Below, piece by piece: positions 3,437 through 18,344 of a DNA stretch of 42,714 nt (position 1 is its first letter; each line of letters opens with the position of its first letter). The position numbers were made by a program, and so were the translations under genes. The notes below the pieces were generated by a model. It was not told where the DNA came from. It did not search any database and saw nothing but the letters and a program-made list of their open reading frames with translations. The DNA comes from an uncultured Gammaproteobacteria bacterium (GTDB lineage: Bacteria; Patescibacteriota; Patescibacteriia; Veblenbacterales; UBA10138): contig CAYGFD010000001.1 in assembly GCA_964349095.1 (NCBI GenBank), positions 13,867 to 56,580 on the forward strand, given 5' to 3'.

Positions 3437-4696
3437 ATGGACGAATCTATATCTATTGAATCTGCTTCAAAAAATAAATCTACCAAACTAATTTCTAGTA
3501 TCGTTATATTGGTCTTAGTGGTGGGTTCTTTTGGTGTTGGGTTAATGGTTGGCTCAAGATATAGTAATCAGTCAAATTCAATATCAAATCTAGTAAACGT
3601 TGACCGTGGACAGCCAGCTGGCGTTAGTAAGGATGTTGATTTTTCGCTTTTCTGGAAAGTTTGGGATCACGTCAAAGCTAACGCCTTGCAACAACCGGTG
3701 AAAGATACTGATTTATTTTATGGTAGTATTGCTGGCATCGTTGCCTCATTACAAGACCCTTACTCAGTCTTTATGAGTCCGCAAGTTGCTAAACAGTTTA
3801 ATCAAGAACTATCTGGTAGTTTTGAAGGGATTGGTGCAGAAATTGGAATAAAAAATGATAACCTGGTAATTATTGCACCTCTTCCCGATACCCCAGCCGA
3901 GCGAGCTGGGCTCAGAGCAGGAGATAGAATTTTGGCGATTGATGGCCATGACACCACTGGTATAGCCTTGGACTATGCGGTCAGCATAATTAAAGGTGTA
4001 AAGGGCTCTAAGGTTAAATTACTTATTTTAGCCAATGGCGACAAAGAACCCAAAGAGTTAGAGATACAGAGAGATAAAATTAATGTGGCTGTTTTGCGAT
4101 CAGAATTAAAAATTAATCCCAATAATCAGGAGAAGGTTGGTTATGTACGTTTAATCCATTTTTCCGAAGATACAGAAATTAATTTCGCCAAAGCCTGGAC
4201 AGATTTAAAGAATAAAGGAGCGAAAAGTATTATTTTAGATTTACGAAATAATCCCGGCGGATTTTTGTCAGTGGCGGTGGATCTTTCGAGTCATTGGATA
4301 AAAGATGGAGTAGTGGTAAAAGAACAATTTTTGCCACCGCAATTTAAAGAATATAAGGCCAATGGTCGAGGGGAGTTACAGGGTATACCTACCATTGTGT
4401 TAGTCAACGAAGGTTCAGCTTCGGCCTCGGAGATTGTAGCCGGCGCTTTGCAGGACTTTAAATTAGCCACTTTAGTCGGCGAGAAAACGTTTGGTAAGGG
4501 ATCCGTTCAAGATTATCAAACGTTTGATGATGGCTCTTCTTTAAAATTAACGGTTGCTAAATGGTTTACACCTCTCGGTCGGCAAATTGACAAAACCGGT
4601 ATTGAGCCAGATATAAAAGTTGAATTATCTACAAAAGATTTTAACGAGGATAAAGATCCGCAACTAGAGAAAGCTTTTGAGCTTTTGGCAAAGTAG
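3437..4696 (+). CDS. Carboxyl-terminal processing protease, S41 family, with PDZ domain and N-terminal TM anchor
   Basis: PDZ-like segment (GIGAEIGIKNDNLVIIAPLPDTPAERAGLRAGDRILAIDG), S41 core (LDLRNNPGG ... GSASASEIVAGALQD ... GEKTFGKG). Confidence 0.9.
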   Translation: MDESISIESASKNKSTKLISSIVILVLVVGSFGVGLMVGSRYSNQSNSISNLVNVDRGQPAGVSKDVDFSLFWKVWDHVKANALQQPVKDTDLFYGSIAGIVASLQDPYSVFMSPQVAKQFNQELSGSFEGIGAEIGIKNDNLVIIAPLPDTPAERAGLRAGDRILAIDGHDTTGIALDYAVSIIKGVKGSKVKLLILANGDKEPKELEIQRDKINVAVLRSELKINPNNQEKVGYVRLIHFSEDTEINFAKAWTDLKNKGAKSIILDLRNNPGGFLSVAVDLSSHWIKDGVVVKEQFLPPQFKEYKANGRGELQGIPTIVLVNEGSASASEIVAGALQDFKLATLVGEKTFGKGSVQDYQTFDDGSSLKLTVAKWFTPLGRQIDKTGIEPDIKVELSTKDFNEDKDPQLEKAFELLAK

Positions 4697-4699
4697 TCT

Positions 4700-4969
4700 A
4701 TGCTGCGGTGGCGGTTTGTGCTTTCTGGCAGAGTACAAGGCGTTGGTTTGCGATACAGTTCTGCGCAAGTAGCGCGTCAACTTGGTTTGTCTGGTTGGGT
4801 AAAAAATATTGACGATAAGGTGGTCTTAGAGGTCGAGGGGTTTGAGGAAGCTCTGGAAAAGATGGAGAAATGGCTGAAAAAGGGAAAATGGTTTGCTAAA
4901 ATCACCAACCTTGATAAAATAGTATTGGCTCTAGAACATGACAATGGATTTAATATAAGGCTTAAGTGA
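4700..4969 (+). CDS. acyP: Acylphosphatase
   Basis: 89 aa with the acylphosphatase signatures GRVQGVGLRY and GWVKN. TGA stop at 4967-4969. Confidence 0.85.
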   Translation: MLRWRFVLSGRVQGVGLRYSSAQVARQLGLSGWVKNIDDKVVLEVEGFEEALEKMEKWLKKGKWFAKITNLDKIVLALEHDNGFNIRLK

Positions 4970-5421
4970 TGGAAATAATTTTTTTGCAAAATGTGGCAGG
5001 GGTGGGTAAGTCTGGTGAGGTAAAAAAAGTCAACGATGGATTTGCTTTAAATTATTTAATACCAAAACAACTTGCCGTCGCCGCCACACCGGAACGATTA
5101 AAAAAAATCGCTGATAATATCAAACACAGGGCTCATGAATCCAAGGAGCGAGAAAAGGAATTGCTGAAAATAATTAACAGGTTACAGAATCAGCAACTGA
5201 CAATAAAAAGTAAATCATCTACCGAAGGAACGCTTTATGCGGCCGTGGATGAGCAGAAAATTGCGGACGCAGTATTGAGTAGATTTGGCTTACCAGTGCC
5301 AATAAACAGTATTAAGTTGGACCAACATATTAAAAAAATAGGACAATACGATATATTATTAAAATTAACCTCTACACTTTCAACTAATTTCAAAATTAAA
5401 GTAGAAGCGGACAATGGCTAA
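4969..5421 (+). CDS. rplI: 50S ribosomal protein L9
   Basis: MEIIFLQNVAGVGKSGEVKKVNDGFALNYLIP is a typical L9 N-domain. I prefer ATG 4969 (TGATG overlap with the acyP stop) over the track's GTG at 4966. Confidence 0.9.
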   Translation: MEIIFLQNVAGVGKSGEVKKVNDGFALNYLIPKQLAVAATPERLKKIADNIKHRAHESKEREKELLKIINRLQNQQLTIKSKSSTEGTLYAAVDEQKIADAVLSRFGLPVPINSIKLDQHIKKIGQYDILLKLTSTLSTNFKIKVEADNG

Positions 5422-7048
5422 GACTAAATTCATATTTATTTCCGGAGGAGTAATGTCTTCAGTAGGCAAAGGTATTGCCGCCGCTTCGTTAGCTAAATTA
5501 TTACAAAGTAAAGGTTATAAGGTCTGCCCAGTAAAGTGCGAAAATTATTTGAATGTTGACGCGGGCACTATTCGTCCCACCGAGCACGGTGAGGTTTTTG
5601 TTTGCGATGATGGTATTGAAACAGATCAAGATATTGGTACTTATGAAAGGTTTTTAGATTTATCTTTGGCTAAAGATAATTTCATTACCATGGGTCAAAT
5701 ATACAAAACAGTTATAGATCGTGAACGATCTTTTGGGTATGAAGGTGAGGATGTTGAGGCAATCCCTCATTTATGTGATGAAATTATTAACCGTATAAAA
5801 AAGGCTGGCCAAAAAATGAAAGCCGATATCGTGGTCATTGAGTTGGGGGGGACGGCAGGCGAATACCAAAACGTTTTCTATTATGAGTCTTCACGTATTA
5901 TGAAATTACGTGATAAAGACAGTGTTTTGCACGTACATGTAGCCTATTTACCAACGCCACCAACAGTTGGAGAAATGAAATCAAAACCAGTACAGACATC
6001 AGTGCATATTTTAAATTCCATGGGTATACAGCCAGATTTCTTAATAGCACGGGCTCAAAAACCTTTGGATAAAAAGCGCAGTGAGCGATTAGCTATGTTT
6101 TGTAACATGGATAGTGGCGATATTATCTCTAATCCTGATTTGGATTCGGTCTATGATGTGGCACTGAAGTTTGATGAGCAGGATTTTGCTGATAAAATAT
6201 TAAAACGTTTTCATCAAAAACCGCGTGGCAAGGATTTGAAGGAGTGGCGCGCGTTGGCTGAGACTGTAAAATCTGTTGAGCAAGAGGTTCCGATTGCTAT
6301 GGTCGGTAAGTATTTTTCTACCGGCGATTATGTTTTATCCGATGTCTATGTTTCCGTGATCGAGTCGTTAAAACACGCCGGCTGGCATAACAACGTTAAA
6401 CCAAAGTTTTATTGGATTGATTCAGAAAAAATAGAAAGTGAGGGGGCGGCGAAATATTTAGATGGCATGGCTGGTATTGTGGTGCCGGGTGGTTTTGGTA
6501 GTAGAGGAATCGAGGGTATTATTCAGGCGGTAACTTATGCCCGAGAGAAAAATATTCCTTATCTTGGTTTGTGTTATGGTATGCAGTTGGCAACGATCGA
6601 GGTCGCGCGTAATTTATCTGGTTTAAAAGACGCTAATTCTGAAGAAATAAATTCAAAGACTAAGCATCCAGTGATCCATATTATGCCCGAGCAAGAAAAA
6701 AAGTTATTATCTAAGGACTATGGGGCGACTATGAGGCTGGGGGCTTGGGATTGTATTATTGAGAAGGGGACTAAAGCCTATCAAGCATATGGTGAGGTAA
6801 AAATATCGGAGCGCCATCGCCATCGTTATGAATTTAATAATGATTATCGTGGGCGTTTGGAAAAAGTTGGGTTAGTTATTTCTGGGACTTCTCCCGATGG
6901 GCATTTGGTAGAAATGGTGGAGCTGAAAAATCATCCATGGTTTGTGGGCGTGCAATTTCACCCAGAGTTCAAGTCTAGACCGTTAAGACCCCATCCATTA
7001 TTTAGGGACTTTATCAGTGCGGCAATAAAAGTGGTGCCAATAACTTAA
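5414..7048 (+). CDS. pyrG: CTP synthase
   Basis: FISGGVMSSVGKGI N-terminus, glutaminase domain with GLCYGMQ and HRHRYE motifs. Start overlaps the rplI stop. Confidence 0.97.
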   Translation: MAKTKFIFISGGVMSSVGKGIAAASLAKLLQSKGYKVCPVKCENYLNVDAGTIRPTEHGEVFVCDDGIETDQDIGTYERFLDLSLAKDNFITMGQIYKTVIDRERSFGYEGEDVEAIPHLCDEIINRIKKAGQKMKADIVVIELGGTAGEYQNVFYYESSRIMKLRDKDSVLHVHVAYLPTPPTVGEMKSKPVQTSVHILNSMGIQPDFLIARAQKPLDKKRSERLAMFCNMDSGDIISNPDLDSVYDVALKFDEQDFADKILKRFHQKPRGKDLKEWRALAETVKSVEQEVPIAMVGKYFSTGDYVLSDVYVSVIESLKHAGWHNNVKPKFYWIDSEKIESEGAAKYLDGMAGIVVPGGFGSRGIEGIIQAVTYAREKNIPYLGLCYGMQLATIEVARNLSGLKDANSEEINSKTKHPVIHIMPEQEKKLLSKDYGATMRLGAWDCIIEKGTKAYQAYGEVKISERHRHRYEFNNDYRGRLEKVGLVISGTSPDGHLVEMVELKNHPWFVGVQFHPEFKSRPLRPHPLFRDFISAAIKVVPIT

Positions 7049-7058
7049 TTTACATAAA

Positions 7059-7090
7059 CAAAAAACCCTTTCGTAAGCGAAGGGTTTTTT
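7059..7090. terminator. Bidirectional intrinsic terminator shared by pyrG (+) and rpmA (-)
   Basis: A-run, CCCTTTCG / CGAAGGG stem (one bulged T) with taag loop, then a T-run. Lies between two convergent genes. Confidence 0.7.
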
Positions 7091-7093
7091 AGT

Positions 7094-7372
7094 TTACTTA
7101 GCTGTAATTGAGACTACTCTAGATAACTTCAGTTTACCGGTAAATGACTTACGCCATTTATTACCAAACTTGATTACTCCAGCCTTAGTGGCAAATAGCG
7201 TGTCATCGCTGCCGCGTTTAACGCCCGGACCTGGAAAAAATTTAGTACCCCTTTGCCTAACAATTACCATACCTGCTTTGGCAACTTGCCCAGCAAATAG
7301 TTTAACGCCTAGTCTTTTAGATTGAGATTCGCGGCCTAAACTTGTGGAGCCGCCTGCCTTTGTATGTGCCAT
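7094..7372 (-). CDS. rpmA: 50S ribosomal protein L27
   Basis: [24 protein letters not shown]... canonical L27 N-terminus, 92 aa. Confidence 0.95.
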
Positions 7373-7477
7373 AAATTAGAATAAAATAATTGTGCAGTAA
7401 CTATAGAGAAATTTATCACTCCAGTCAAGCCCTAGGGGTGGTTATTAGTTTCTTTGGGTGTTAATATATATTTGAAT

Positions 7478-8236
7478 ATGCCTTTATTTATTACAATTTT
7501 AATACTAGTTTTCGGCCTTATTGGTGCCGGTTGCAATAAGGTAGCAGATATTAACCAACCTAATAACGATATTATAAACGCTAGTATTTCTAATACTAAC
7601 GCCGATGTTCCAATTGTTAGGGAAGAACCAGTAAAAACTGAGCCGGAAAAAATAGTGGTTAATAATGAACAGACTCACAGTATAAAAATCATCAGCGTCC
7701 CTTTTACTTCTCAGGCGCCATTTGCTAATTGGGATATGCCTTACCAAGAGGCCTGTGAAGAGGCGAGTATGATAATGATTGAGGATTTTAGTAAAGGCAT
7801 TAAGAGTCAAAGAATTGAGCCGTCTGAGGCAGATAGTAGGATTTTAGATTTGGTAAAGTGGGAAGAAAATAAAACTTATCCGATAGATTTAACTGCCCAA
7901 GAAGTTGTTCGGGTGTTATTTGAAAGGTTTGGTATAAAAGCCCGTGTCGCACCCTACAGCGCTAATTTAATAAGGCAACAAATTAATGCCGGTCGTCCGA
8001 TAATTTTACCAGCGGCCGGTAGATTGCTTGGAAATCCAAATTTTCATCAACCCGGGCCACTGTACCATATGTTAGTTGTAAAAGGTTACGAGGGCGATGA
8101 ATTTATTACGAACGATCCAGGTACTCGACGGGGCGAAAATTATCGCTACCATTTCTCGGCCTTTGATAAAGCGGCACATGACTGGAACGGGGGAGATGTT
8201 GAAAATGGTGAACAAGCTATAATTATCCTAGACTGA
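7478..8236 (+). CDS. C39-like (YvpB/Peptidase_C39_2-like) cysteine peptidase domain protein with N-terminal signal/lipobox-like segment
   Basis: LIGAGC lipobox-like N-terminus. VPFTSQAP..W..PYQEACEEASMIM (Cys) and YHMLVVKGYEGDEFITNDPG (His/Asp) resemble the C39_2 fold. ATG 7478 is preferred over the TTG at 7454 in the track. Confidence 0.6.
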   Translation: MPLFITILILVFGLIGAGCNKVADINQPNNDIINASISNTNADVPIVREEPVKTEPEKIVVNNEQTHSIKIISVPFTSQAPFANWDMPYQEACEEASMIMIEDFSKGIKSQRIEPSEADSRILDLVKWEENKTYPIDLTAQEVVRVLFERFGIKARVAPYSANLIRQQINAGRPIILPAAGRLLGNPNFHQPGPLYHMLVVKGYEGDEFITNDPGTRRGENYRYHFSAFDKAAHDWNGGDVENGEQAIIILD

Positions 8237-8242
8237 CTGTAT

Positions 8243-8271
8243 TTGATAATTAATAGAATTTATGTTAAACT
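8243..8271 (+). promoter_or_regulatory. Putative promoter of the abrB-like/efflux operon (TTGATA-17-TAAACT)
   Basis: TTGATA 8243-8248, 17-nt spacer, TAAACT 8266-8271. Confidence 0.45.
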
Positions 8272-8283
8272 TAAGTAAGCTAA

Positions 8284-8301
8284 ATCATACTTATCATACT
8301 T
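8284..8301 (+). repeat. Perfect tandem 9-mer ATCATACTT x2, ending 1 nt before the start codon of the AbrB-like gene
   Basis: ATCATACTT at 8284-8292 and 8293-8301, ATG at 8303. Candidate operator. Confidence 0.6.
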
Positions 8302-8302
8302 T

Positions 8303-8545
8303 ATGGCAAAAAAAAGAGAACAACATAATATACTGAATGAGGTTTTTTTTGGAAGTACAACCATGGGCTCGCGAGGCCAGGTGGTTATTCCAGCGGCTGC
8401 GCGTCAGTCCTTGAAAATGAAAACCGGTGATAAGTTGATGGTGTTTGGAAAGTTTGGTCAAGTTGTTGGTTTGGTGAAAGCCGAGGCGATTGATAGTTTT
8501 ATAAAAAAATTAATGTCACAATTTGGAAAGGTTATAAAAAAATAA
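8303..8545 (+). CDS. AbrB/MazE/SpoVT-family DNA-binding protein
   Basis: GSRGQVVIPAAARQSLKMKTGDKLMVF matches the swapped-hairpin SpoVT-AbrB motif. 80 aa. Confidence 0.75.
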   Translation: MAKKREQHNILNEVFFGSTTMGSRGQVVIPAAARQSLKMKTGDKLMVFGKFGQVVGLVKAEAIDSFIKKLMSQFGKVIKK

Positions 8546-8546
8546 T

Positions 8547-10073
8547 ATGTGGAGAATTATTAAATTAAAAAAAGTTTGGATCCCTTTGTTGATCGTTTTG
8601 GTTGTAACGGGTTTAATAGTTAATCAGGTTAGAAAAAGTGGTCAGCCAAAATATACTACAGAAAAAGTAGTTAAACAGGATTTATCACAAACAGTGTCGG
8701 TGACTGGTACTGTTGAGGCAGCCGAGGAAGTTGAATTAAATTTCAAAATTGGTGGGCGTTTGGCTAGTATGCCTGTTAAAGTTGGCGATTCAGTAGGTCG
8801 CGGAGTTTTCTTGGCCTCGCTGGAGGCCAACGATGTGCGAGCCAGTTTGCTATCTGCTGAAGCACAGGTTAAACAGTATCAGGCTCAGCTAGACAAATTA
8901 AAAGCTGGTGCTCAAATTGAAGATGTGGCAGTCTACCAGACGGCCGTTGATACGGCTACTATCAACCTAGCTAATGTAATAAAAACTCAGGAGCAAGCGG
9001 TTAAAAATGCTTTATCGCAATTAGTGGGCTTAGCAGCAGATGCAGTGCCGGCGAGTGGAAATATATCTACGGCCACCATCTCAATTTCTGGGGCCTATAA
9101 TGGATCAGAAACAGGTATATACACAATTAAAATTGATAATAATTCGAGTTTGACTTACTCGGTGTATGGCATAGAAAATATCTCTGGTTCAAATGGTAGT
9201 CGTTTAACTCCGACACTACTTGGCACCAAGGGTTTAAATATGATTTTTAGTTCAACAGGCACCGTTTCTAATAACGATATCTGGACTGTTGCTATACCAA
9301 ACACCAATCACTCCAGTTATACCACCTATAAAGCGGCCTACGATGCGGCATTGGTTACACAAAAAAAGGAGGTTGCTGCGGCGGAGCAGGCATTAGCTAA
9401 GGCCAAGGCCGAATTAAACTTAAAATTAGCCCCAGCACGATCTTACGATATTACATCAGCCGAAGCGCAATTAGCTTCAGCCCGGGCTACGCTTCTTAAA
9501 GCGCAATCAGATTTACTTGATCGATCTATCATTGCTCCGGTGGCAGGCACGGTCACTAAAATAAATTATCAATTAGGCGAAACTACTTCAGTAGCTACAC
9601 CGGTGTTAGTTTTATTGTCCGAGGGTAATTATGAAATCAAGGTTAAAGTACCAGAAGCAGACGTAGCCAAGCTCGCTAAAGATCAATCAGTTGACATCAC
9701 GCTTGACGCTTTTGGTTCGAGTCAACATTTTGCGGGACATATTCATTTTATTGATCCGGCTTCAACTGAATTGACCGACGTCGTTTATTATGAAGTTACA
9801 ATTTTATTTGATAATTCTGATGAACGTATTAAACCCGGAATGACAGCAAATGTTGATGTTAATACAGGCAGTAAAAGTGATATTTTAGTCATACCGTTAA
9901 GAGCGGTAAAGTATGACTCAGACTTTAAACCTTTTGTAGAGGTTTTGGTAAACGGAGAACTTGTTACCAAGGAAATCACTTTAGGTTTAAAGGGTGATGA
10001 CGGATTGACCGAGGTTGTTAGTGGATTAAGTGAGGGGGAATTAGTTGTTACCTCTAAAGTTAACGGAAAATAA
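8547..10073 (+). CDS. HlyD/MacA-type periplasmic adaptor (membrane fusion protein) with a large insert in the coiled-coil hairpin
   Basis: N-terminal TM, barrel-sandwich motifs (GTVEAAEEVELNFKIGGRL, APVAGTVTKINYQLGE), coiled-coil arms, C-terminal beta-barrel. Confidence 0.85.
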   Translation: MWRIIKLKKVWIPLLIVLVVTGLIVNQVRKSGQPKYTTEKVVKQDLSQTVSVTGTVEAAEEVELNFKIGGRLASMPVKVGDSVGRGVFLASLEANDVRASLLSAEAQVKQYQAQLDKLKAGAQIEDVAVYQTAVDTATINLANVIKTQEQAVKNALSQLVGLAADAVPASGNISTATISISGAYNGSETGIYTIKIDNNSSLTYSVYGIENISGSNGSRLTPTLLGTKGLNMIFSSTGTVSNNDIWTVAIPNTNHSSYTTYKAAYDAALVTQKKEVAAAEQALAKAKAELNLKLAPARSYDITSAEAQLASARATLLKAQSDLLDRSIIAPVAGTVTKINYQLGETTSVATPVLVLLSEGNYEIKVKVPEADVAKLAKDQSVDITLDAFGSSQHFAGHIHFIDPASTELTDVVYYEVTILFDNSDERIKPGMTANVDVNTGSKSDILVIPLRAVKYDSDFKPFVEVLVNGELVTKEITLGLKGDDGLTEVVSGLSEGELVVTSKVNGK

Positions 10074-10074
10074 T

Positions 10075-10803
10075 GTGTCAGATTTAATTAAAGTTGATAA
10101 TCTTTGTAAACAATACGAAAACGAAGAAGTAATTACTCCGGTACTTAAGGATATTTCTTTCACTATTGCCAGTGGCGAGTTTGTTTCTATTATGGGTCCA
10201 TCTGGTTCGGGTAAATCTACTCTCATGCACATCTTGGGGTTTTTGGACAAATTGTCTTCGGGGAAATATATTTTTGACGGTCAGGATGTAATTGGGTTAA
10301 ACGACGATCAATTGGCTGAACTAAGGCTCATGAAAGTCGGTTTTATTTTTCAACAATTCAATTTACTTCCAAAAACAACTGTTTTAGATAATGTTAAGTT
10401 ACCATTGCTTTATGCTGAAATGCCTGAGGAAGAGCGAGTGAAACGCGCCCGAGAAGCGATTGTGGCGGTTGGGCTAGAACACCGCATGGAATTTTTATCA
10501 AACCAGTTATCTGGCGGTGAAAAACAAAGGGTGGCAATCGCTAGATCTCTAGTTAATAATCCATCATTAATTTTTGCTGACGAACCGACCGGGAACCTGG
10601 ATTCAAAGTCCGGCGCACAGATAATGAAGATTTTATACGACCTAAATGAGCAAAAAAAACACACTATTATTTTAGTAACACATGAAATGTATACGGCCAA
10701 TCACGCACGGAGGATACTGCGTTTGAAAGATGGAAAGTTGATTTCCGATGATCGTGTAACAGAAAAGGATAGACAAGAGGCTCTCAGTGGAGAATTAAAG
10801 TAG
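10075..10803 (+). CDS. ABC transporter ATP-binding protein (MacB/LolD-like)
   Basis: Walker A GPSGSGKST, Q-loop, signature LSGGEKQRVAIAR, Walker B LIFADEPTGNLD, H-loop VTHE. GTV at 10075, just after the adaptor stop, is preferred to the TTG at 10045. Confidence 0.9.
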   Translation: MSDLIKVDNLCKQYENEEVITPVLKDISFTIASGEFVSIMGPSGSGKSTLMHILGFLDKLSSGKYIFDGQDVIGLNDDQLAELRLMKVGFIFQQFNLLPKTTVLDNVKLPLLYAEMPEEERVKRAREAIVAVGLEHRMEFLSNQLSGGEKQRVAIARSLVNNPSLIFADEPTGNLDSKSGAQIMKILYDLNEQKKHTIILVTHEMYTANHARRILRLKDGKLISDDRVTEKDRQEALSGELK

Positions 10804-10814
10804 GTTTTTCCCAT

Positions 10815-12059
10815 ATGGAAATAAGGGGAATATTAAAATTAGTAACCACAAACTTGCGGGCCAATCGGCTGCGTTCTTTTCTTACCATGCTGGGGCTTAT
10901 TATTGGTATTGGCTCTGTCATTTTAATCATTTCAATTGGCGCTGGCGCTCAGTCGCTAATATTGCAACAAGTGAATAGCTTGGGAAGTGATTTAGTTGGT
11001 GTGTTGCCTGGGGCTTCTGATGAAAACGGTCCACCAGCAGCCGTGTTTGGTATTCAAGTGAAGACATTAGTTAACGACGATGTTAAGGCGCTGCTTAATG
11101 ATAGTAGAACTCATCATATTGTGGCCGCGTCGGGGTATGTAAGAGGAAGTGATAAGATGTCTTATCAAAACCGGGACATTGATAATGGAGCATACATGGG
11201 TGTGGAAGCTTCTTATCCAGAAATAGAAAATGTTGAGTTAGAGCGCGGACGGTTTTTTTCACCTGAAGAGGACGCGGGTCTTGCTCGCGTCGCTGTTATT
11301 GGTAGTGAAACTTCTCAGGAATTATTTCAAGGCGATGATCCTTTGGGTCAGAATATTAAAATTGGACGCGAGACCTTTAGAGTAATCGGAGAGTTAAAAG
11401 AGCGTGGTACGGTTGCTTTTACTAACCAGGACAAGATGGTATTCATACCGTTAAACACCGCGCAAAAAATAATGTTAGGATGGCGGCACTTGTCATTAAT
11501 TAGAGCTAAGGTTGATGATTCTACAACTATTGATGAAACACTGGTTTCGATTAAACAAGTACTGCGCGAACAGCACAATATTGACTCTGAGCAAGAAGAC
11601 GATTTTTCTGTTCGGGCGGCGGTACAAGCTCTGGATTTATTAACAAGTATAACTAATGCCTTTAAATTTTTCTTAGCGTCAATTGCGGCATTATCATTAT
11701 TGGTTGGCGGAATTGGTATTATGAATATAATGCTGGTAGCGGTTACTGAAAGATTTAGGGAAATAGGATTAAGAAAAGCGGTTGGAGCTAAACGTCGAGA
11801 TATTTTGAATCAGTTTTTAATAGAAACATTAATTATTACAGGCGTCGCCTCAATAATCGGAATAATGGGCGGAGCTATCATCTCTGGTCTGATCGCTATT
11901 ATCGCTAACAGCCTTGGTTATGCGTGGTCATTTATTGTTTCGGCCTCGTCTATAATAGTTGCCGTTGGTGTTGGTGGAATGATCGGCTTGATTTTTGGTT
12001 ATTATCCGGCAAAAAGAGCGGCCGAACTTGATCCGGTCGTAACATTGAGATACGAGTAA
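10815..12059 (+). CDS. ABC transporter permease, MacB/FtsX family (copy 1)
   Basis: MacB_PCD-type extracytoplasmic domain between TM1 and TM2. C-terminal FtsX domain (GIGIMNIMLVAVTERFREIGLRKAVGA). Confidence 0.9.
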   Translation: MEIRGILKLVTTNLRANRLRSFLTMLGLIIGIGSVILIISIGAGAQSLILQQVNSLGSDLVGVLPGASDENGPPAAVFGIQVKTLVNDDVKALLNDSRTHHIVAASGYVRGSDKMSYQNRDIDNGAYMGVEASYPEIENVELERGRFFSPEEDAGLARVAVIGSETSQELFQGDDPLGQNIKIGRETFRVIGELKERGTVAFTNQDKMVFIPLNTAQKIMLGWRHLSLIRAKVDDSTTIDETLVSIKQVLREQHNIDSEQEDDFSVRAAVQALDLLTSITNAFKFFLASIAALSLLVGGIGIMNIMLVAVTERFREIGLRKAVGAKRRDILNQFLIETLIITGVASIIGIMGGAIISGLIAIIANSLGYAWSFIVSASSIIVAVGVGGMIGLIFGYYPAKRAAELDPVVTLRYE

Positions 12060-12060
12060 T

Positions 12061-13311
12061 ATGAATTTAAGAAATTACGCCACTTTAGCATATGATAATT
12101 TTAAAAGGCATCGCGCACGATCACTGCTTACAGGTCTTGGTATTGTAATTGGGATTGCCGCCGTAATCATAGTTATTTCGGCAGGTCAGGGCGTAAAAGG
12201 CTTTTTAGTTGCTCAGCTAGAATCTTTTGGCTCTAATTTATTGCAAATTGAAACCAAGATTCCATCAATGGGTAGTCAGTCTGATGAAGCGCAGGCGCGA
12301 GGTTTTGGGCAGGTAGTTACCACTCTGACGCTTGATGATATGATGGCCATAAGAAAACATCCAAATATTGTAAACAACTATGCCGGGCAGGTTGGTCAGG
12401 AAGTGGTTCAGGGGCCGGGTACAAAAAAAACCGTCAGCTTATTTGGTTCCACCGCGACTGTGCAGGACATAGATACTGCCAGGGTAGAGAAGGGGAGATT
12501 TTTCACTGATGAAGAGGATCAATCATTAGCGCGCGTAGCTGTATTGGGTAGTAAGGTTGCCAACGATTTATTTGGCAACACTGAACCAGTAGGGCAATTC
12601 GTGAAAATAGATCAAAAAAGTTTTAAAGTAATTGGCGTCATGGCGCCTCGTGGAGCGGCGTTATTTTTTGATTATGACGTTTATGTTTATCTACCAATCC
12701 GCACGATGCAAAAACAATTACTCGGAATAGATTATGTAAGTTTTATTTCCAACCAGTATCGCGATAATACTAAACTAAAATCAACGATTGATGATCTAAC
12801 CTATTTATTACGCGAACGGCACAATATACCTTTAGATGAACCGGATAAAGATGACTTTGTTATTAGTTCTAATGAAGACGTCATGGCTATTTTTGATACC
12901 ATCATTGGTGGCTTTACATTACTGCTAGTGGCGCTGGCGGCTATTTCCTTAATTGTCGGTGGCGTCGGTATTATGAATATTATGTACGTTTCTGTTTTGG
13001 AAAGAACTTTTGAGATTGGTTTAAGAAAAGCAGTCGGCGCAAAAAGGCGGGAAATTTTGAGACAATTTTTGGCTGAGGCTATTTTTACAACTGGGCTGGG
13101 TGGTATCACAGGAATTATTGTGGGCGCGGCTATTGCTTATTTAATATCTTTAGCTGCCGGTTTTCTAGGTTTTGCGTGGACATTTTCAGTGCCCATCTAT
13201 TCGGTGGTTTTAGCAGTAGGTTTTTCAGTGGGTACGGGATTAGTATTTGGTATTTACCCAGCACGTCAGGCCGCTGATTTAAACCCCATCGACGCTTTAA
13301 GACGAGAATAG
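12061..13311 (+). CDS. ABC transporter permease, MacB/FtsX family (copy 2)
   Basis: Paralogue of the preceding gene (GVGIMNIMYVSVLERTFEIGLRKAVGA). The start abuts the previous stop. Confidence 0.9.
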   Translation: MNLRNYATLAYDNFKRHRARSLLTGLGIVIGIAAVIIVISAGQGVKGFLVAQLESFGSNLLQIETKIPSMGSQSDEAQARGFGQVVTTLTLDDMMAIRKHPNIVNNYAGQVGQEVVQGPGTKKTVSLFGSTATVQDIDTARVEKGRFFTDEEDQSLARVAVLGSKVANDLFGNTEPVGQFVKIDQKSFKVIGVMAPRGAALFFDYDVYVYLPIRTMQKQLLGIDYVSFISNQYRDNTKLKSTIDDLTYLLRERHNIPLDEPDKDDFVISSNEDVMAIFDTIIGGFTLLLVALAAISLIVGGVGIMNIMYVSVLERTFEIGLRKAVGAKRREILRQFLAEAIFTTGLGGITGIIVGAAIAYLISLAAGFLGFAWTFSVPIYSVVLAVGFSVGTGLVFGIYPARQAADLNPIDALRRE

Positions 13312-13345
13312 ATAGATGTCTGAGTGCCGAGAGGGGTTTTTTGTA

Positions 13346-13374
13346 TTGACAAAGAGGATAAAAAAAGGTATATT
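13346..13374 (+). promoter_or_regulatory. Putative promoter of a GC-rich cassette (TTGACA-17-TATATT)
   Basis: TTGACA 13346-13351, 17-nt spacer, TATATT 13369-13374. Follows a T-run. Confidence 0.5.
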
Positions 13375-13433
13375 GATTTGAAAATACAACACAAATAACG
13401 CTCATCATATCAATAATTATAGGAGACATCACA

Positions 13434-13868
13434 TTGATTGACATAAAAATTCGGTCGTTCATTGACGCAATTTGCGGCCCGCATTACTGGCCATCTTACT
13501 TCGAGCACGTGCGTGTCCCGCAGGAGCGCTGGAATGATCTCGCCAAGTCAATTCATGGCGACATTACGGCTGAGGATATCTCTCCGGAAGTGCAGACGGC
13601 TCTGTTCAGCTACCTCTGCGAGGATCACGCCCCAGTTCAGGGGTCAAGGCCGGAATTCAAGTTCGCCGAGGAAAAGGCCCGCCAGTTTGGCATGAAGCAG
13701 CTCCAGGTAGCTGAATTCTGCCAGGTGGTGGACAGGATGCGTGTACGATACACGCACATTCTTCAGGGATTCCGCTCGGAAACACCCGCACCGAATTCGG
13801 CTGAAGCAGCTAAGTGCGTTTCCTCCTACATGGCCTCTCAGGGCATCATCATCGATCTGGCAGCCTAA
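13434..13868 (+). CDS. Hypothetical protein (144 aa) in a compositionally foreign, GC-rich ORF
   Basis: AGGAG SD at 13421-13425, TTG start. The ORF fills the space exactly between promoter and terminator. I recognise no family. Confidence 0.6.
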   Translation: MIDIKIRSFIDAICGPHYWPSYFEHVRVPQERWNDLAKSIHGDITAEDISPEVQTALFSYLCEDHAPVQGSRPEFKFAEEKARQFGMKQLQVAEFCQVVDRMRVRYTHILQGFRSETPAPNSAEAAKCVSSYMASQGIIIDLAA

Positions 13869-13891
13869 TATCAGGCCGCCAAGCTCCTTTA

Positions 13892-13925
13892 AGACGGGAA
13901 GCTAGTAAAGCAACCCGTCTTTTTT
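13892..13925 (+). terminator. Intrinsic terminator
   Basis: AGACGGG ... CCCGTCT stem followed by TTTTT. Confidence 0.7.
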
Positions 13926-13936
13926 ATTTAAAGCTC

Positions 13937-13965
13937 TTGACAGGCTTTTCAGTGTATTTTAAACT
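13937..13965 (+). promoter_or_regulatory. hrcA operon promoter (TTGACA-17-TAAACT)
   Basis: TTGACA 13937-13942, 17-nt spacer, TAAACT 13960-13965, with CIRCE 4 nt downstream. Confidence 0.65.
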
Positions 13966-13969
13966 GAAA

Positions 13970-13996
13970 TTAGCACTCTAACAATGAGAGTGCTAA
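13970..13996 (+). promoter_or_regulatory. CIRCE operator (HrcA binding site)
   Basis: TTAGCACTC-taacaatga-GAGTGCTAA is a perfect match to the CIRCE consensus TTAGCACTC-N9-GAGTGCTAA. Confidence 0.92.
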
Positions 13997-14007
13997 TAGG
14001 TAAAATT

Positions 14008-14691
14008 ATGATGGAAAATAGGAAAAAAGAACTAATTGCCGAGGTAGTTCGGGGTTATATAAGGCAGGCAGAACCGATTGGTTCCAAGCAACTTGAAAAA
14101 AAACTTGGCGTTTCCTCAGCCACTATTAGAAATGAAATGCTCGATTTAGAGCAAGAGGGTTTTTTAAATCAACCACACACTTCAGCCGGACGCGTACCAA
14201 CCGTTAAAGCCTATGAGTACTATGTTAGTAATTTTTTATCACCTAAATATCCTAGCGAGTTGGTGGTGAAGGAATTGAAACGTTTACAAAAATTTAACCC
14301 GCGGGACGATATTTTTTGGAAAGAGACGGCAAAGAAATTGGCAGATTTTTCTGGACAGGCAGTAATTGTCGGATTTAATAAGAATGATTTGTATTATACC
14401 GGCCTAGCCAATTTGTTTTCGCAGCCTGAATTTAGCCACCTTGATATGGTGCAGTCAATGAGCCAGGTGATTGATAAGTTAGATGAGGTCATGGAGGGGC
14501 TATATAAGGATTTGTCACAAGAGGTACAAATTAAAATTGGTGCTAATAATCCATTCGGAAATAGTTGCGCAACAGTTATCACAAGTTTTGCGATGCCGGA
14601 TAAAAGGGTGGTGGGATTTTTAGGGCCATGGCGTATGGATTATGAAATTAATGTAGGTTTATTAAATTATGTCAGACAAATTATCAAATAA
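14008..14691 (+). CDS. hrcA: Heat-inducible transcription repressor HrcA (short form)
   Basis: N-terminal winged helix (PIGSKQLEKKLGVSSATIRNEMLDLEQEGFLNQPHTSAGRVPT) and C-terminal GPWRMDYE motif. ATG 14008 is preferred because the track start 13984 lies inside CIRCE. Confidence 0.9.
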   Translation: MMENRKKELIAEVVRGYIRQAEPIGSKQLEKKLGVSSATIRNEMLDLEQEGFLNQPHTSAGRVPTVKAYEYYVSNFLSPKYPSELVVKELKRLQKFNPRDDIFWKETAKKLADFSGQAVIVGFNKNDLYYTGLANLFSQPEFSHLDMVQSMSQVIDKLDEVMEGLYKDLSQEVQIKIGANNPFGNSCATVITSFAMPDKRVVGFLGPWRMDYEINVGLLNYVRQIIK

Positions 14692-15142
14692 TGATGAAAA
14701 TATAATTGATTTTGAGAAACAAGCGGCCGAATATTTGGCTGGCTGGCAAAGGGCCAGGGCTGATTATCAAAATTTAAAAAAAGAAACTGATTCCAGAATG
14801 GGTGAGTATATTGCAGGCGCTAATCAGGCCTTATTAATGGAATTATTACCGCTAGTTGATTATTTTAAAAACGCTTTTAAACACCTTCCGGAAGATTTAA
14901 AAAGTAGTGATTGGGTAGTTGGTATTAGACATATTCAATCGAAATTGGAACAAGTTCTTGCATATAGTGGTGTTAAAGAGATGGAAGTGGTCGGCGAGTT
15001 ATTTAATCCCGAATTACACGAATCAGCGGGCGAAGTGGAGGTGGCAGGGGCTGAGCACGGCACAATAATTGAAGAGGTTAGAACTGGGTTTAAGTTGCAT
15101 GATAAAGTATTGCAGCCGGCTAGGGTAAAAATCGCAAAATAA
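14669..15142 (+). CDS. grpE: Nucleotide exchange factor GrpE (short form)
   Basis: WQRARADYQNLKKE coiled-coil motif, C-terminal beta-domain (FNPELHESAG ... LQPARVKI). Overlaps the hrcA end by 23 nt. Confidence 0.9.
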   Translation: MSDKLSNNDENIIDFEKQAAEYLAGWQRARADYQNLKKETDSRMGEYIAGANQALLMELLPLVDYFKNAFKHLPEDLKSSDWVVGIRHIQSKLEQVLAYSGVKEMEVVGELFNPELHESAGEVEVAGAEHGTIIEEVRTGFKLHDKVLQPARVKIAK

Positions 15143-15165
15143 TTAACAAGTTTAGTATTTCAAGT

Positions 15166-15285
15166 ATGGAATACATTTGCCCAGAGTGTGGATATACCGA
15201 TGAATACCGCGGTCGTTGCCCGCAATGCAATGTGCCGTTGGTGCCGATCGATGAGCCACGCAATGGAAACGGAGAAGAGGAGTAA
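15166..15285 (+). CDS. Candidate 39-aa zinc-ribbon mini-protein (not in the ORF track because <60 aa)
   Basis: MEYICPECGYTDEYRGRCPQCNVPLVPIDEPRNGNGEEE has two CxxC pairs. G+C looks clearly above the flanks by eye. No obvious SD. Confidence 0.4.
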   Translation: MEYICPECGYTDEYRGRCPQCNVPLVPIDEPRNGNGEEE

Positions 15286-15293
15286 TCCTCTCT

Positions 15294-15339
15294 CTGGATC
15301 TGCCACTTTTAAGGTGTTAGATCCAGGGTAAAACCCTTT
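15294..15339 (+). terminator. Terminator-like double hairpin after the mini-ORF
   Basis: CTGGATCT (15294-15301) pairs with AGATCCAG (15319-15326). A GGGTaaaACCC hairpin plus TTT follows. Confidence 0.4.
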
Positions 15340-15363
15340 ATTAATAATTAAGCAAAAAATTAT

Positions 15364-15777
15364 ATGTCACTAATAAAATGGACACCATTACTGCCACAGA
15401 TTGACGATTTTGATCGATTCTTTGATGATATGCGACCAATGGGCGGGTTTGTCCCAGCCATTGATGTGTATCAAACCAAGGATGATGTTGTGGTTGAAGC
15501 GCCGCTTGCCGGTATTGATCCTAATCAGGTCAATGTATCAATTGAAAACGATGTTTTGACTTTGGAAGGTAAAAGCGAGCACAAATCGGAAGTAGATGAA
15601 AAAAATTATTATCGAAAGGAAGTTAGATTTGGATCATTTCATCGTTCGGTTGCGTTACCAGCGGCAGTAAAAGGTGATGCCGCTAAAGCAACCTATGAAA
15701 AGGGAGTTCTAAAAATAGTCATACCTAAAGAAGAGCGCGCAAAGCCTCGGACAGTTAAAGTCGAGGTAAGGGATTAA
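15364..15777 (+). CDS. Hsp20/alpha-crystallin family small heat-shock protein
   Basis: Alpha-crystallin domain (PAIDVYQTKDDVVVEAPLAGIDPNQVNVSIENDVLTLEG ... FHRSVALP ... YEKGVLKIVIPK). Confidence 0.92.
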   Translation: MSLIKWTPLLPQIDDFDRFFDDMRPMGGFVPAIDVYQTKDDVVVEAPLAGIDPNQVNVSIENDVLTLEGKSEHKSEVDEKNYYRKEVRFGSFHRSVALPAAVKGDAAKATYEKGVLKIVIPKEERAKPRTVKVEVRD

Positions 15778-15782
15778 TAAAA

Positions 15783-15809
15783 AAGACCCGATTTGTAAGA
15801 TCGGGTCTT
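15783..15809. terminator. 10-bp hairpin between convergent genes. The U-tract is on the minus strand, so it mainly terminates the minus-strand gene.
   Basis: AAGACCCGAT / ATCGGGTCTT stem, 7-nt loop, A-run on the plus-strand 5' side. Confidence 0.6.
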
Positions 15810-15848
15810 GGGGTGAGTCTCCCTTTGGGAGATTCACTTCAAGATGCG

Positions 15849-16337
15849 TTATTTGAAAAGGAGAAAACGATCGCGGATCCAGATTACGGCATTGCTGGCA
15901 ATCATGAGCGTCATCAGTCCAATGCACGTAAGGCAAAAAATAATAGTCCAGTTGAGTAAAACATGTTCGGTGGAAATGTATAGTTTGTAAATGCCGGTCG
16001 CGCAAAAATAAGTCATAATAAGCCAGATGGCTAGAAGAGACAACGAGACCGTGTATCTTTCCGACTTAATCTCATCAGGATGTTGTCGTCTTAGTATTAA
16101 ACCCAAGGCGTTCCGATGTTTTATCGTGTTGTCAATAAAGATGACGCTAAGTAGCACGCAGCAAACAAATGCGAATCCCAGAACCCATTTTCCAAATTGG
16201 ATTACTCCGTCGAAATAGATTGCCAAGTATAGAAAAAATCCGAGCAGGCAGGCGCCAAATAAGAAAGCAATCGCGTTGTTGAAGTAGCCAATAATTTCTT
16301 GGCGGTAGTCAGATATATGATCAAATCGATAGGCCAT
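15849..16337 (-). CDS. Hypothetical integral membrane protein (about 4 TM)
   Basis: Hydrophobic profile. GGGAGA SD 4 nt upstream of ATG 16337 (preferred over the TTG at 16373). A TTGACA box on the minus strand lies at 16419-16414. Confidence 0.55.
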   Translation of the reverse strand: MAYRFDHISDYRQEIIGYFNNAIAFLFGACLLGFFLYLAIYFDGVIQFGKWVLGFAFVCCVLLSVIFIDNTIKHRNALGLILRRQHPDEIKSERYTVSLSLLAIWLIMTYFCATGIYKLYISTEHVLLNWTIIFCLTCIGLMTLMIASNAVIWIRDRFLLFK

Positions 16338-16442
16338 TTTTCTCCCAATCAGTTGATGTTTAAAAGGAAACAATGTTTGTTAATTAGGTAAACTTATAAA
16401 AAATTTAATTATTTGTCAATTAATTATTATTTATAAAAAATT

Positions 16443-18344
16443 ATGTCGAAAATATTAGGTATAGATTTAGGAACAACTAACTCATGTATGGCGGTGATGG
16501 AGGGTGGCTCGCCTAAGGTATTGGAAAATAAAGAGGGCGCGAGAACCACGCCGTCAATGGTGGCTATGACTAAGGCCAATGAGCGATTAGTTGGATTATT
16601 AGCCAAAAGGCAAGCGGTTACTAACCCTACCAACACTTTATATTCATTAAAGCGCTTAATCGGTCGTCGCTGGGATGATCCTGAAGTTCAGCGCGATTTG
16701 AAAGTTTTGCCATTTAAAATGAATAAGTCCGGAGATGGTGTAAAAGTGGAAATGGGTGGAAAAGACTATAGTCCACAAGAAATTTCAGCTATGGTTTTAC
16801 AAAAACTTAAGGCCGACGCGGAAGAAAAGTTGGGTGAGAAAATTACCGAGGCTATCATAACCGTGCCAGCTTATTTTGATGACTCACAAAGACAAGCTAC
16901 TAAGGACGCTGGTGAAATCGCCGGGCTTACTGTTAAACGCATAATAAATGAGCCGACGGCAGCAGCTCTGGCCTATGGTTTTGACAAGAAAAAAGATCAA
17001 AAGATCGCTGTTTATGATTTAGGTGGTGGGACTTTTGATATTTCTATATTAGAAATATCGGCTGATACCGTGGAGGTTAAATCAACAAATGGTGACACTC
17101 ACTTGGGTGGTGATGATTTTGATCAACGTTTAATTGGTTGGGTAGTTGATGAATTTAAGAAGGACCAAGGAATCGACCTATCAAAGGATCCGTTGGCCTT
17201 ACAAAGAATTAAAGAAGCTTCAGAAAAAGCCAAGATAGAGCTTTCGACTGCGTCAGAAACAGAAATAAATCAGCCCTTTATTACTTCGGATGCATCTGGT
17301 CCAAAACACATGCTAATAAAATTATCTCGTTCCAAAATGGAAGAGATAGTAGGGGATTTAGTTGAAAAAACCTTGGAACCAGTAAAAAAAGCTTTGTCTG
17401 ATTCTGGTTTATCCACCAAAGAAATTGATGAAGTAGTAATGGTTGGGGGTATGACTCGTATGCCTTTAGTTTTACAAACTGTTGAAAAATTTTTCGGTAA
17501 GAAACCAAACGTATCAGTTAATCCCGACGAGGTAGTGGCTATTGGTGCGGCAGTACAAGCCGGAGTATTGCAGGGCGAAGTTAAGGATGTATTGCTACTT
17601 GATGTGACACCGCTATCACTCGGCCTTGAAACCTTAGGTGGTGTTTCCACTAAACTTATTGATAGGAATACAACAATACCTACTTCTAAATCACAAGTAT
17701 TTTCTACTGCAGCTGATAGTCAAACGTCCGTTGAAATTCATATTCTTCAAGGCGAAAGAGAATTTGCTCGCGATAACAAGACTTTAGGTAGATTTATTCT
17801 GGACGGTATTCCGCCAGCACCGCGCGGCATGCCCCAAGTGGAAGTGACTTTTGATATTGATGCCAATGGTATATTGAATGTGAAAGCCAAGGATAAAGCG
17901 ACTAATAAAGAGCAACACATAACAATTACGGCTTCAACAGGACTATCTAAAGACGAGGTAGAGAAAATGAAGAAAGAGGCTGAAATTCATGCAGCCGAAG
18001 ATAAGAAGCGCCGTGAATCAGTTGATGTAAAAAATCAAGCTGAGAGTGTGCTTTATCAAACGGAGAAAATGTTAAAAGATCAGGGCGATAAGGTGCCAGC
18101 CGATGTTAAAAAGACAGTTGAGGAAAAGTTGGAAGACTTACGTAAAGCAAAAGATGGTGAAGATTCCGAGGCCACTAAAAAGGCGCTTGATGAATTAAAC
18201 CAAGCGGCTATGAAAATAGGGGAAGCGATGTATAAAGCCCAAGGTCAATCTGCACCTCAAGGTGATGGCACAGATAAAGCTGGTGGCGAGCCAAGTAAGT
18301 CAGAAGGCCCGGTGGAGGGTGAAGTAGAGGATGTTAAGAAGTAA
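16443..18344 (+). CDS. dnaK: Molecular chaperone DnaK (Hsp70)
   Basis: [31 protein letters not shown] and other canonical Hsp70 motifs. 633 aa. Confidence 0.98.

Follow-up and report, generated by a model that had tools for sequence, protein, structure and literature searches.

The 42,714-nt (42.7-kb) stretch of DNA analysed here, hereafter the window, to which all coordinates refer, comes from a bacterium of the Patescibacteria, or Candidate Phyla Radiation (CPR). Between perm2, the last gene of an efflux operon, and hrcA, it carries a short GC-rich gene, ORF144, which together with its own expression signals forms a cassette of 580 nt. ORF144 is very probably a genuine stand-alone protein-coding gene, judging from its sequence and that of its relatives. 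The slot that it occupies was ancestrally empty and acts as a recurrent insertion hotspot, ORF144 being one of its fillings. The protein belongs to an orphan family that is very small, diverges fast and is found in a single genus-level clade of Patescibacteria, and the GC-rich allele found in the window probably replaced a resident one or spread after the gene had entered the slot. We regard this account as probable when taken as a whole, that is, a coding orphan with its own transcription unit, inserted at a hotspot, subject to later allele replacement or spread and acting as a non-enzymatic conflict or interaction factor.

Composition and transcription unit of ORF144

ORF144 is the strongest compositional outlier of the window, whose GC content is ~40%. 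The background against which it was compared consists of the 36 open reading frames (ORFs) of at least 110 aa in the window, rather than of the whole genome. The GC content of ORF144 is 0.545 (0.579, 0.407 and 0.648 at the first, second and third codon positions, GC1, GC2 and GC3), while the other 35 ORFs have a mean GC3 of 0.350 (standard deviation 0.040, maximum 0.469), placing ORF144 at z=7.5 for GC3 and z=5.7 for total GC. The GC maximum among all 435-nt segments of the 42.7 kb (0.563) starts at position 13452, only 0.18% of such segments match the GC content of ORF144, and the next independent peak reaches 0.487. In codon adaptation to the window genes, no other ORF of the 36 scores lower (0.575, z=-2.9), though two come near. 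The GC block has sharp edges, with a rise at ~13455, eight codons into ORF144, and a fall at ~13905, within the terminator's 5' arm. The original prediction had described a GC-rich outlier from five hand counts of G+C (27, 33 and 33 in the three 60-nt blocks from 13434, and 25/60 at 13201 and 19/60 at 14001 in the flanks). All five counts were reproduced and the description holds against the window background.

Several observations favour a protein-coding frame. ORF144 matches a 140-aa protein, P0122, end to end and in frame, and the two genes lie in the same slot of different species. By our own arithmetic, an open frame of 140 codons would arise by chance in DNA of 40% GC with a probability of ~1e-4. 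GC content by codon position follows the order GC3 > GC1 > GC2 in frame, which is a coding pattern, and the proportion of non-synonymous differences (pN=0.51) is lower than that of synonymous ones (pS=0.90). The suspicion that a 144-codon frame of this composition is probably coding, thus, gained support from the in-frame homologue, the codon-position pattern, the synonymous nature of the only coding variant in the population (see below) and pN < pS.

The cassette was proposed to be a self-contained unit bracketed by two TTGACA promoters, and a promoter, a ribosome-binding site, the ORF and a terminator were all located accordingly (Table 1), with 11 of 12 consensus matches in the cassette promoter and 10 of 12 in that of hrcA. 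The terminator hairpin (13891-13921) plus its U-tract folds at -15.6 kcal/mol (z=-4.39), and none of 200 shuffles folds as well. The same terminator is present in the relative L015 and its 3' half in L013, and the hrcA promoter is strongly kept in L013, L014, L015 and L104. In the sister species represented by contig L016, the cassette promoter has the same TTGACA-17-TATATT hexamers and spacing. The prediction of a native-looking promoter stands as far as the consensus goes. The promoter may, nevertheless, be the cassette's own rather than a captured one, as L016 shares its hexamers while the two leaders are not significantly alignable. No terminator-like fold was found in the perm2 stop region (13306-13345, z=0.2), so that read-through from the efflux operon may add to ORF144 expression. 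At the other end, the cassette terminator would insulate the CIRCE-controlled hrcA promoter downstream.

The cassette is a stable resident of its population. An identical arrangement was found in three further independent assemblies, obtained from different runs and with different assemblers: the Logan contigs L001 and L002 and the ENA contig L012. Among the contigs of four runs covering positions 12700-14500, single contigs run across both cassette junctions (12.5x and 25.2x), and no joint skipping the cassette, which would represent an empty-site allele, was present. Over positions 4008-18008, L012 is 99.7% identical to the window (42 mismatches, no gaps), and single-nucleotide polymorphisms are as dense in the cassette as in its flanks (2 in 580 nt against 42 in 14,001 nt overall). 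One of the two (13375 G>A) lies one base past the -10 hexamer, and the other (13493 A>C), a synonymous change of a proline codon, is the sole within-population coding variant of ORF144.

The perm2–hrcA slot and the ORF144 family in relatives

Loci were gathered through a scan of JGI (Joint Genome Institute) metagenomes with perm2 and a look-up of relatives by HrcA, and the positions of perm2, hrcA and grpE were determined on each of them. The HrcA relatives of the window carry Patescibacteria labels (such as Falkowbacteria, Kerfeldbacteria and 'Patescibacteria group'). The closest ones are 77-82% identical and lie on contigs of 1-2 kb (L013, L014 and L015), and the next ones are 63-65% identical. 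The gene order adaptor, ATPase, permease, permease, followed by hrcA-grpE-hsp20-dnaK, is old and widespread. In twelve relatives (L026, L028, L033, L034, L041, L059, L070, L073, L074, L097, L101 and L104), only 69-154 nt separate the perm2 stop from the hrcA start, and this gap holds just the hrcA promoter and CIRCE. The closest outgroup, L104 (81% identity in perm2, 74.5% in GrpE and 63% in HrcA), has a gap of 99 nt. In other relatives, the slot contains unrelated genes (Table 1). Being empty in twelve relatives and occupied by unrelated genes elsewhere, the slot is a recurrent insertion hotspot. The proposal that ORF144 was inserted into an older gene order agrees with both L104 and the eleven more distant empty relatives. 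Relatives retrieved by an HrcA-based scan of genome collections (39-46% identity) were unusable as empty-site controls, because their upstream synteny is not conserved.

As the original prediction had it, the protein has no recognisable family: searches of Pfam, NCBIfam, PHROGs, PADLOC, PDB and BFVD returned neither family nor fold. The best PHROGs hit had E=0.39, PADLOC gave no match at E≤10 for either ORF144 or P0122, and Rfam contained no family matching ORF144. A word-indexed search of 5.8 billion protein clusters, run with the single protein and then with a two-sequence profile, retrieved only ORF144 itself and P0122. P0122 was also found by HMMER among 1.84 billion representative proteins (27% identity, residues 5-139 aligned, E=1.4e-5), and it is the one full-length homologue of ORF144 among ~15 billion proteins. 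Two other HMMER matches, P0123 and P0124, were judged spurious from their sequences, being long repeat proteins matched in 5-6 stretches. ORF144 and P0122 share an N-terminal block (FI..I.G..YW.S.F..V..P.E.W..LA) and a C-terminal one (PAPN......SSYMAS.GI). No further copy was detected by tblastn of ORF144 and ORF140, the gene encoding P0122, against all fetched loci. ORF144 had no match in a scan of viral contigs or in tblastn searches of phages, and the GC block, searched by blastn in plasmid and phage sequences, gave none either. The only plasmid match by tblastn, in Pantoea (E=0.02), was rejected because it is antisense to an annotated coding sequence.

ORF140 is encoded on L016, directly after a perm2 orthologue (360 of 416 residues identical), and its tblastn match to ORF144 is in frame (E=4e-11, in a search restricted to the fetched loci). 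The last 30 nt of L016 equal the first 30 nt of L014, which holds an hrcA orthologue (82% identity), and the order in the sister species is therefore perm2, ORF140, terminator, hrcA. ORF140 has a host-like composition (GC 0.400, GC3 0.440). In L015 (HrcA 81% identical), the 87-nt end of an ORF with 53% GC lies immediately upstream of hrcA. Its C-terminus, …TEAAIDSVPWIIARDGIELPIPA followed by the stop, aligns weakly with both ORF144 and ORF140, while its 3' flank, which corresponds to the segment following ORF144, and its terminator are ~85% identical to those of the window (score 63, p<0.001). L013 starts inside the same terminator, and its partner contig was not found in the JGI metagenomes. 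Between the window and L016, neither flank of the cassette aligns significantly (p=0.20 on the 5' side and p=0.06 on the 3' side).

The comparison of syntenic regions, thus, cut both ways: the slot is empty in twelve relatives, yet homologues occupy the same position in the nearest ones recovered (L016/L014 and L015), which goes partway towards the refutation that the original prediction had named for itself, and the family is therefore resident in the clade rather than a one-off recent arrival. Of the predicted horizontally acquired accessory gene, the insertion and the foreign composition were upheld, whereas a simple recent acquisition was not.

Table 1. Features of the perm2–hrcA slot in the window and contents of the slot in relatives
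Feature	Position in window, or locus	Strand	Basis or remark
perm2, second MacB/FtsX-type permease	12061..13311	+	NCBIfam MacB, E=9e-59; last gene of the adaptor-ATPase-permease-permease efflux operon; upstream edge of slot
Upstream direct-repeat copy CTTTAAGACGAGAA, 14 nt	13295..13308	+	Last codons of perm2; possible insertion junction
Cassette promoter, sigma-70-type, TTGACA, 17-nt spacer, TATATT	13346..13374	+	11/12 consensus matches; consensus match alone
AT-rich leader, ~50-60 nt	13375..13433	+	7-9 G+C per 30 nt
Ribosome-binding site AGGAG	13421-13425	+	8 nt upstream of the TTG start; read from sequence
ORF144, 144-aa orphan protein	13434..13868	+	TTG start; ORF listing; longest frame of the region
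Post-ORF segment like perm2 3' end (TCAGGCCGC ... CTTTAAGACGGGAA)	13870..13905	+	Holds the downstream repeat copy
Downstream direct-repeat copy, one mismatch (13/14)	13887-13900	+	592 nt from the upstream copy
Intrinsic terminator, stem AAGACGGG/CCCGUCUU plus inner stem, then U-tract	13891..13928	+	Inverted repeat I5
hrcA promoter, TTGACA, 17-nt spacer, TAAACT	13937..13965	+	10/12 consensus matches; downstream edge of slot
CIRCE operator ATTAGCACTC-N9-GAGTGCTAAT	13969..13997	+	Perfect 11-nt inverted repeat (I6); hrcA-grpE-hsp20-dnaK-dnaJ cluster
hrcA, 227 aa, short Patescibacteria form	14008..14691	+	NCBIfam TIGR00331 hrcA, E=9e-48
Slot cargo: 246-304-aa family with N-terminal hydrophobic, signal-peptide-like segment	L017-L023, L020/L021, L025, L105/L106	-	
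Slot cargo: GIY-YIG protein	L051		
Slot cargo: NUDIX protein	L060		
Slot cargo: ORFs of 142, 156 and 188 aa	L053, L058, L064		
Slot cargo: 3.5-kb block	L086		
Slot of 358-534 nt without convincing ORF	L024, L029, L102		

Origin of the GC-richness and mode of insertion

The flanking genes of the window and the sister species are synonymously saturated (pS=0.76 for perm2, synonymous divergence dS ~2.4 for hrcA). Over such a divergence, unselected third positions should approach the ~35% of the host. The third-position GC content is 65% in the window allele and 44% in the L016 allele, and the L015 fragment is also GC-rich. Since the flanks are saturated, yet one allele is host-like and the other GC-rich, the GC-richness is unlikely to stem from one old acquisition that then decayed passively. 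The composition would instead mark the window allele as horizontally derived, either through later replacement of a resident allele or through recent spread of a GC-rich 'type A' cassette, comprising the window and L015 alleles with their shared 3' junction. The source of this cassette might be an unsampled, GC-richer carrier, which is plausible given that related Patescibacteria range from 32% to 57% GC. We clearly favour entry or spread of the type A cassette after the species split over active maintenance of GC, because neither RNA folding nor native codon usage explains a selection for GC.

The alternative that survives best is a single ancient insertion followed by purely vertical descent, with the GC-richness arising or persisting in place through selection, be it on codons, on mRNA or on amino-acid content, or through GC-biased conversion. 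Homologues in the same slot of the nearest relatives, promoter hexamers common to the window and L016, and a cassette diverging within the population at the rate of its flanks all agree with it, and a GC-rich window allele and a GC-rich L015 allele with a common 3' junction and terminator are what an ancestral GC-rich state would give. We consider it unlikely, all the same, as third positions free of selection should have drifted to ~35% in every lineage with flanks so saturated, and the L016 allele has done so (GC3 0.44), the window allele remaining at 0.65. Moreover, the ORF on its own has no excess RNA structure by which selection for GC could be explained (z=-0.65), highly expressed native genes are not GC-rich (GC3 of 0.33 in dnaK, for example), and the window has no second copy that could act as a conversion donor.

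Direct repeats and duplications at the slot bear on how the cassette was inserted. Copies of CTTTAAGACGAGAA with at most one mismatch occur only twice in the whole window, on either side of the cassette (Table 1), and in none of the shuffles; as an insertion junction, this repeat is suggestive, not established. The segment following ORF144 resembles the 3' end of perm2, with a local alignment score of 30.5 that 0.25% of shuffles reach when just the two flanks are compared. Its interpretation as a perm2 3'-end remnant was kept only as a suggestion, for the restricted test gives p=0.0025 and the whole-gap, two-strand test p ~0.1. The promoter, ORF140 and the terminator of the sister species lie between the two copies of a perfect 14-nt direct repeat, CCAATACTTGGCAT (L016:2077-2090 and L016:2721-2733, the latter continuing into L014); we estimate the chance of such a repeat at ~1e-3.

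The core of CCAATACTTGGCAT is partly palindromic (GCCAA-TAC-TTGGC), and it is at its second copy that the Logan contig L016 breaks, with the 30-nt overlap with L014. In L017 (6823-6875) and L105 (2936-3011), the final ~53 nt of perm2 recur almost perfectly 28-45 nt past its stop, with local alignment scores of 81 and 59.5 that no shuffle reaches. Both loci hold the minus-strand slot gene, and duplication of the perm2 3' end at the junction is apparently recurrent. The repeats of the window and L016 and the duplications of L017 and L105 point tentatively to integration with duplication of short target sequences.

Such traces could also mean that small mobile units integrated independently in each species, in a Campbell-like manner through short core sequences, at the same intergenic region, which would explain why both the flanks and the direct repeats around the cassettes differ. 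The two cassettes are indeed bracketed by unlike repeats (perfect, with copies 644 nt apart, in the sister species; 13/14, with copies 592 nt apart, in the window), their flanks cannot be significantly aligned, and the perm2 duplications lie at the same junction. This explanation is, in our judgement, distinctly unlikely. Neither the window nor the sister contigs encode a recombinase, the window repeat does not stand out in the whole-gap test, intergenic DNA is expected to be unalignable anyway at saturated divergence, and no cassette-free allele appeared in the four runs. The family, with three members in one slot of one clade, is also distributed unlike the usual mobile cassettes. A diversity-generating retroelement target was considered and discarded, as the window contains no cassette repeat longer than 21 nt elsewhere and no reverse transcriptase domain.

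A role of ORF144 as an accessory of its neighbours, either as a regulator or partner of the MacB-type pump or as a heat-shock co-factor of HrcA, is very unlikely and largely refuted by the comparative data. The gene directly follows the last permease with no terminator in between, making co-transcription possible, and lies directly upstream of hrcA. However, both neighbouring gene sets are conserved without ORF144 in more than 20 relatives, where the slot is empty or holds unrelated genes, and the MacB-type operon is kept without it in all relatives outside the small clade of the window. Besides, ORF144 has its own promoter and terminator and is not preceded by CIRCE, the sole copy of which (13969-13997) lies beyond that terminator.

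GC islands in AT-rich genomes are often structured non-coding RNAs, and the cassette, a GC-rich block that has a promoter and a terminator of its own in a genome of 40% GC, might be one of them, with an incidental open frame. Folding is more stable than in shuffles for the full transcript (z=-3.67), an effect of the terminator and of mixing two compositions, but not for ORF144 alone, nor for the sister ORF (z=-1.33). Rfam gives no match at E≤1 in the block, the sole one in the region searched (E=0.81) being on the opposite strand over CIRCE. The sister copy is not GC-rich and its DNA is unalignable, so that conservation lies at the protein level, in frame, alone, and GC content by codon position follows the coding pattern; this explanation is nearly refuted. 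The splicing of a GC-rich fragment of another organism into a Patescibacteria contig during assembly, which the abrupt steps in composition, within a few tens of bases, might suggest, is refuted by the identical arrangement in the window and three other assemblies, the junction-spanning contigs without alternative joints, and the diverged homologue in the same slot of the sister species.

Possible function, neighbouring genes and comparison with known systems

The ORF144 protein (16.4 kDa, pI 5.7) has no membrane or hydrophobic segment. A single-sequence AlphaFold model was unusable (predicted local distance difference test, pLDDT, of 47). The two-sequence model (pLDDT 69.7, predicted template modelling score 0.55) consists of a short N-terminal beta-hairpin and six helices, suggesting a soluble, mainly helical protein. 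Foldseek searches with this model gave no significant match in PDB (best E=0.67) or BFVD (best E=1.3), and the best E-value of a sequence-profile search of PDB was 0.22. No known defence or toxin–antitoxin system was recognised through PADLOC or Pfam, a result that an undescribed system is still compatible with.

Very tentatively, we suggest that ORF144 is a non-enzymatic, partner-binding accessory factor in conflict or interaction, of the immunity, anti-defence or host-interaction type. The suggestion draws on the small size and mainly helical model of the protein, on conserved positions that are mainly hydrophobic, aromatic or proline, on its patchy distribution and hotspot location, and on a divergence far faster than that of the flanking genes and of its own non-coding 3' flank. 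Between the window and L015, by our reading, the last ~23 residues are ~35% identical, while the adjacent non-coding flank is ~85% identical. The neighbourhood offers no functional clue, because both neighbouring gene sets exist without ORF144 and the slot holds unrelated genes elsewhere. A more far-reaching possibility, which we deem unlikely, is that ORF144, ORF140 and the L015 fragment represent a new family of hypervariable Patescibacteria conflict or interaction proteins, kept in a fixed slot between conserved flanks, under diversifying selection, and swapped time and again between lineages of different GC content. Such proteins could be, for example, immunity or anti-defence factors, or factors in the episymbiotic interaction with host cells.

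Several points weigh against the preferred account of a hotspot insertion with later replacement or spread of a GC-rich allele. The compositional background is that of the window genes; the window encodes no integrase, transposase or reverse transcriptase in its 42.7 kb; and its direct repeat reaches only p ~0.1 in a whole-gap, two-strand shuffle test. As neither a donor nor a GC-rich homologue outside the clade was found among the ~15 billion proteins, the case for a horizontal origin is one of composition and synteny only. Judging from the window and L015 alleles, both GC-rich despite saturated dS, active maintenance of GC in place would be equally possible. None of the RNA sequencing runs searched for the cassette sequence carries it. 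On the protein side, the moderate confidence of a model built from a two-sequence alignment makes the lack of a known fold weak evidence, and the functional suggestion is a guess.

On the upstream side of the slot, the identical perm2 gene of L012 matches the Pfam families MacB_PCD and FtsX. The genes for the adaptor, ATPase and two permeases are preceded by a Peptidase_C39_2-like protein (7454-8236) and an 80-aa SpoVT/AbrB (MazE-like) protein (8303-8545), an arrangement kept in L012, L017, L018 and L020. Because this conserved arrangement precedes the pump genes, the pump may export a processed peptide rather than drugs. On the downstream side, the inverted repeat at 13969-13997, which we take to be CIRCE from the consensus TTAGCACTC-N9-GAGTGCTAA, precedes hrcA in every relative inspected. 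The mechanical ORF list places the hrcA start at the ATG at 13984, within the operator. The true start is at 14008 (MMENRKKE), also used in homologues, and the gene is called as 227 aa in L001, L002 and L012. This short HrcA of ~227-230 aa, against ~340 aa in the usual form, is typical of all the Patescibacteria relatives retrieved. Three of the loci, L003, L004 and L005, come from GTDB records titled 'uncultured Gammaproteobacteria bacterium'. They carry the hrcA-grpE-hsp20-dnaK-dnaJ cluster with the short HrcA that is typical of Patescibacteria relatives, and a DnaK 73-79% identical to that of the window; their taxon labels are possibly wrong.

Between hsp20 and dnaK, a 174-aa hydrophobic ORF on the minus strand (15849-16373) has no match in Pfam or NCBIfam. 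It has the second highest GC3 in the window (0.469) and a low codon adaptation (0.582), and minus-strand ORFs of 170-183 aa lie at the same position in L017, L102, L104 and L105. Further downstream, the window encodes two VirD4/TrwB-like coupling-protein ATPases ~10 kb apart (26837-29383 and 38740-40515; TrwB_AAD_bind, T4SS-DNA_transf and DUF87 domains), the second of which adjoins a sigma-70-region-4/HARE-HTH protein (36200-37321).

Mismatches that separate L012 from the window lie close together in places: seven synonymous changes within 116 nt of the ABC ATPase gene (10290-10405), six within 34 nt of dnaK (17753-17786), and four changes, three of them non-synonymous, at 14813-14827 in grpE. 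These clusters look like traces of recombination between strains over short tracts. In the gap between grpE and hsp20 (15299-15340), the final ~45 nt of L001 disagree with the window at ~27 positions, owing either to an intergenic segment that varies among strains or to an artefact at the contig end.

Studies of horizontal transfer in bacterial genomes recognise integration hotspots, or 'genomic islets', located between core genes that are conserved. The locus resembles them in that conserved syntenic core genes (perm2 and hrcA) bracket the site, which many relatives leave empty and others fill with unrelated cargo, often unannotatable, and in that ORF144 has an atypical composition and its own expression signals. 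Atypical composition, empty sites and unrelated cargo were, thus, all observed, while a donor or homologues in unrelated genomes were not found among the ~15 billion proteins or in the viral contigs, phages and plasmids searched. It differs in being a single 0.6-kb gene without a recombinase, tRNA or phage remnant, in having homologous but extremely diverged alleles in the slot of sister species and, with respect to the well-studied proteobacterial islets, in its host, which belongs to a Patescibacteria lineage of roughly the 1-Mb class.

O-antigen and capsule loci undergo xenologous allele replacement between conserved flanks and have an atypical GC content. By analogy, the slot may be seen as a locus with conserved flanks and a hypervariable interior, whose alleles would be unalignable at the DNA level and differ in composition from the host and from each other. 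Unlike those loci, it encodes one small cytoplasmic protein and no surface-polysaccharide pathway, and it has three known alleles, among which replacement by recombination is putative. ORF144 also resembles the integron cassettes as a discrete single-gene block of ~0.6 kb with a hairpin-forming sequence at its 3' end. However, integron cassettes are normally promoterless, whereas this unit has its own promoter, its hairpin is a G+C stem with a U-tract terminator rather than an attC site, and the window contains neither an integron integrase nor attI.

In lacking any Pfam, NCBIfam, PHROG or PADLOC family and any PDB or viral fold match, and in having a single detectable full-length relative, in a sister species, ORF144 is like other Patescibacteria orphan genes. 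It departs from most orphans, which have a host-like composition, by its outlier status in the 42.7 kb and by its demonstrable location in a site that was empty ancestrally. Orphan genes in integration hotspots are a well-known kind of feature, while the protein family is new. A literature search brought up nothing on this particular locus.

Patescibacteria genomes are tiny and rich in unannotatable genes, and gene gain and exchange in them are poorly documented. The locus provides a clean example of a conserved core-gene junction, from an efflux permease to hrcA, serving as a repeated insertion slot, which public metagenomes show empty, filled with different genes and with swapped alleles. 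A further lesson is that atypical GC need not equate to recent acquisition, given that the family is resident in the clade and it is the composition of one allele that is foreign. At present ORF144 is another hypothetical protein, but a role in conflict or host interaction, if confirmed, would make it useful for approaching CPR biology.

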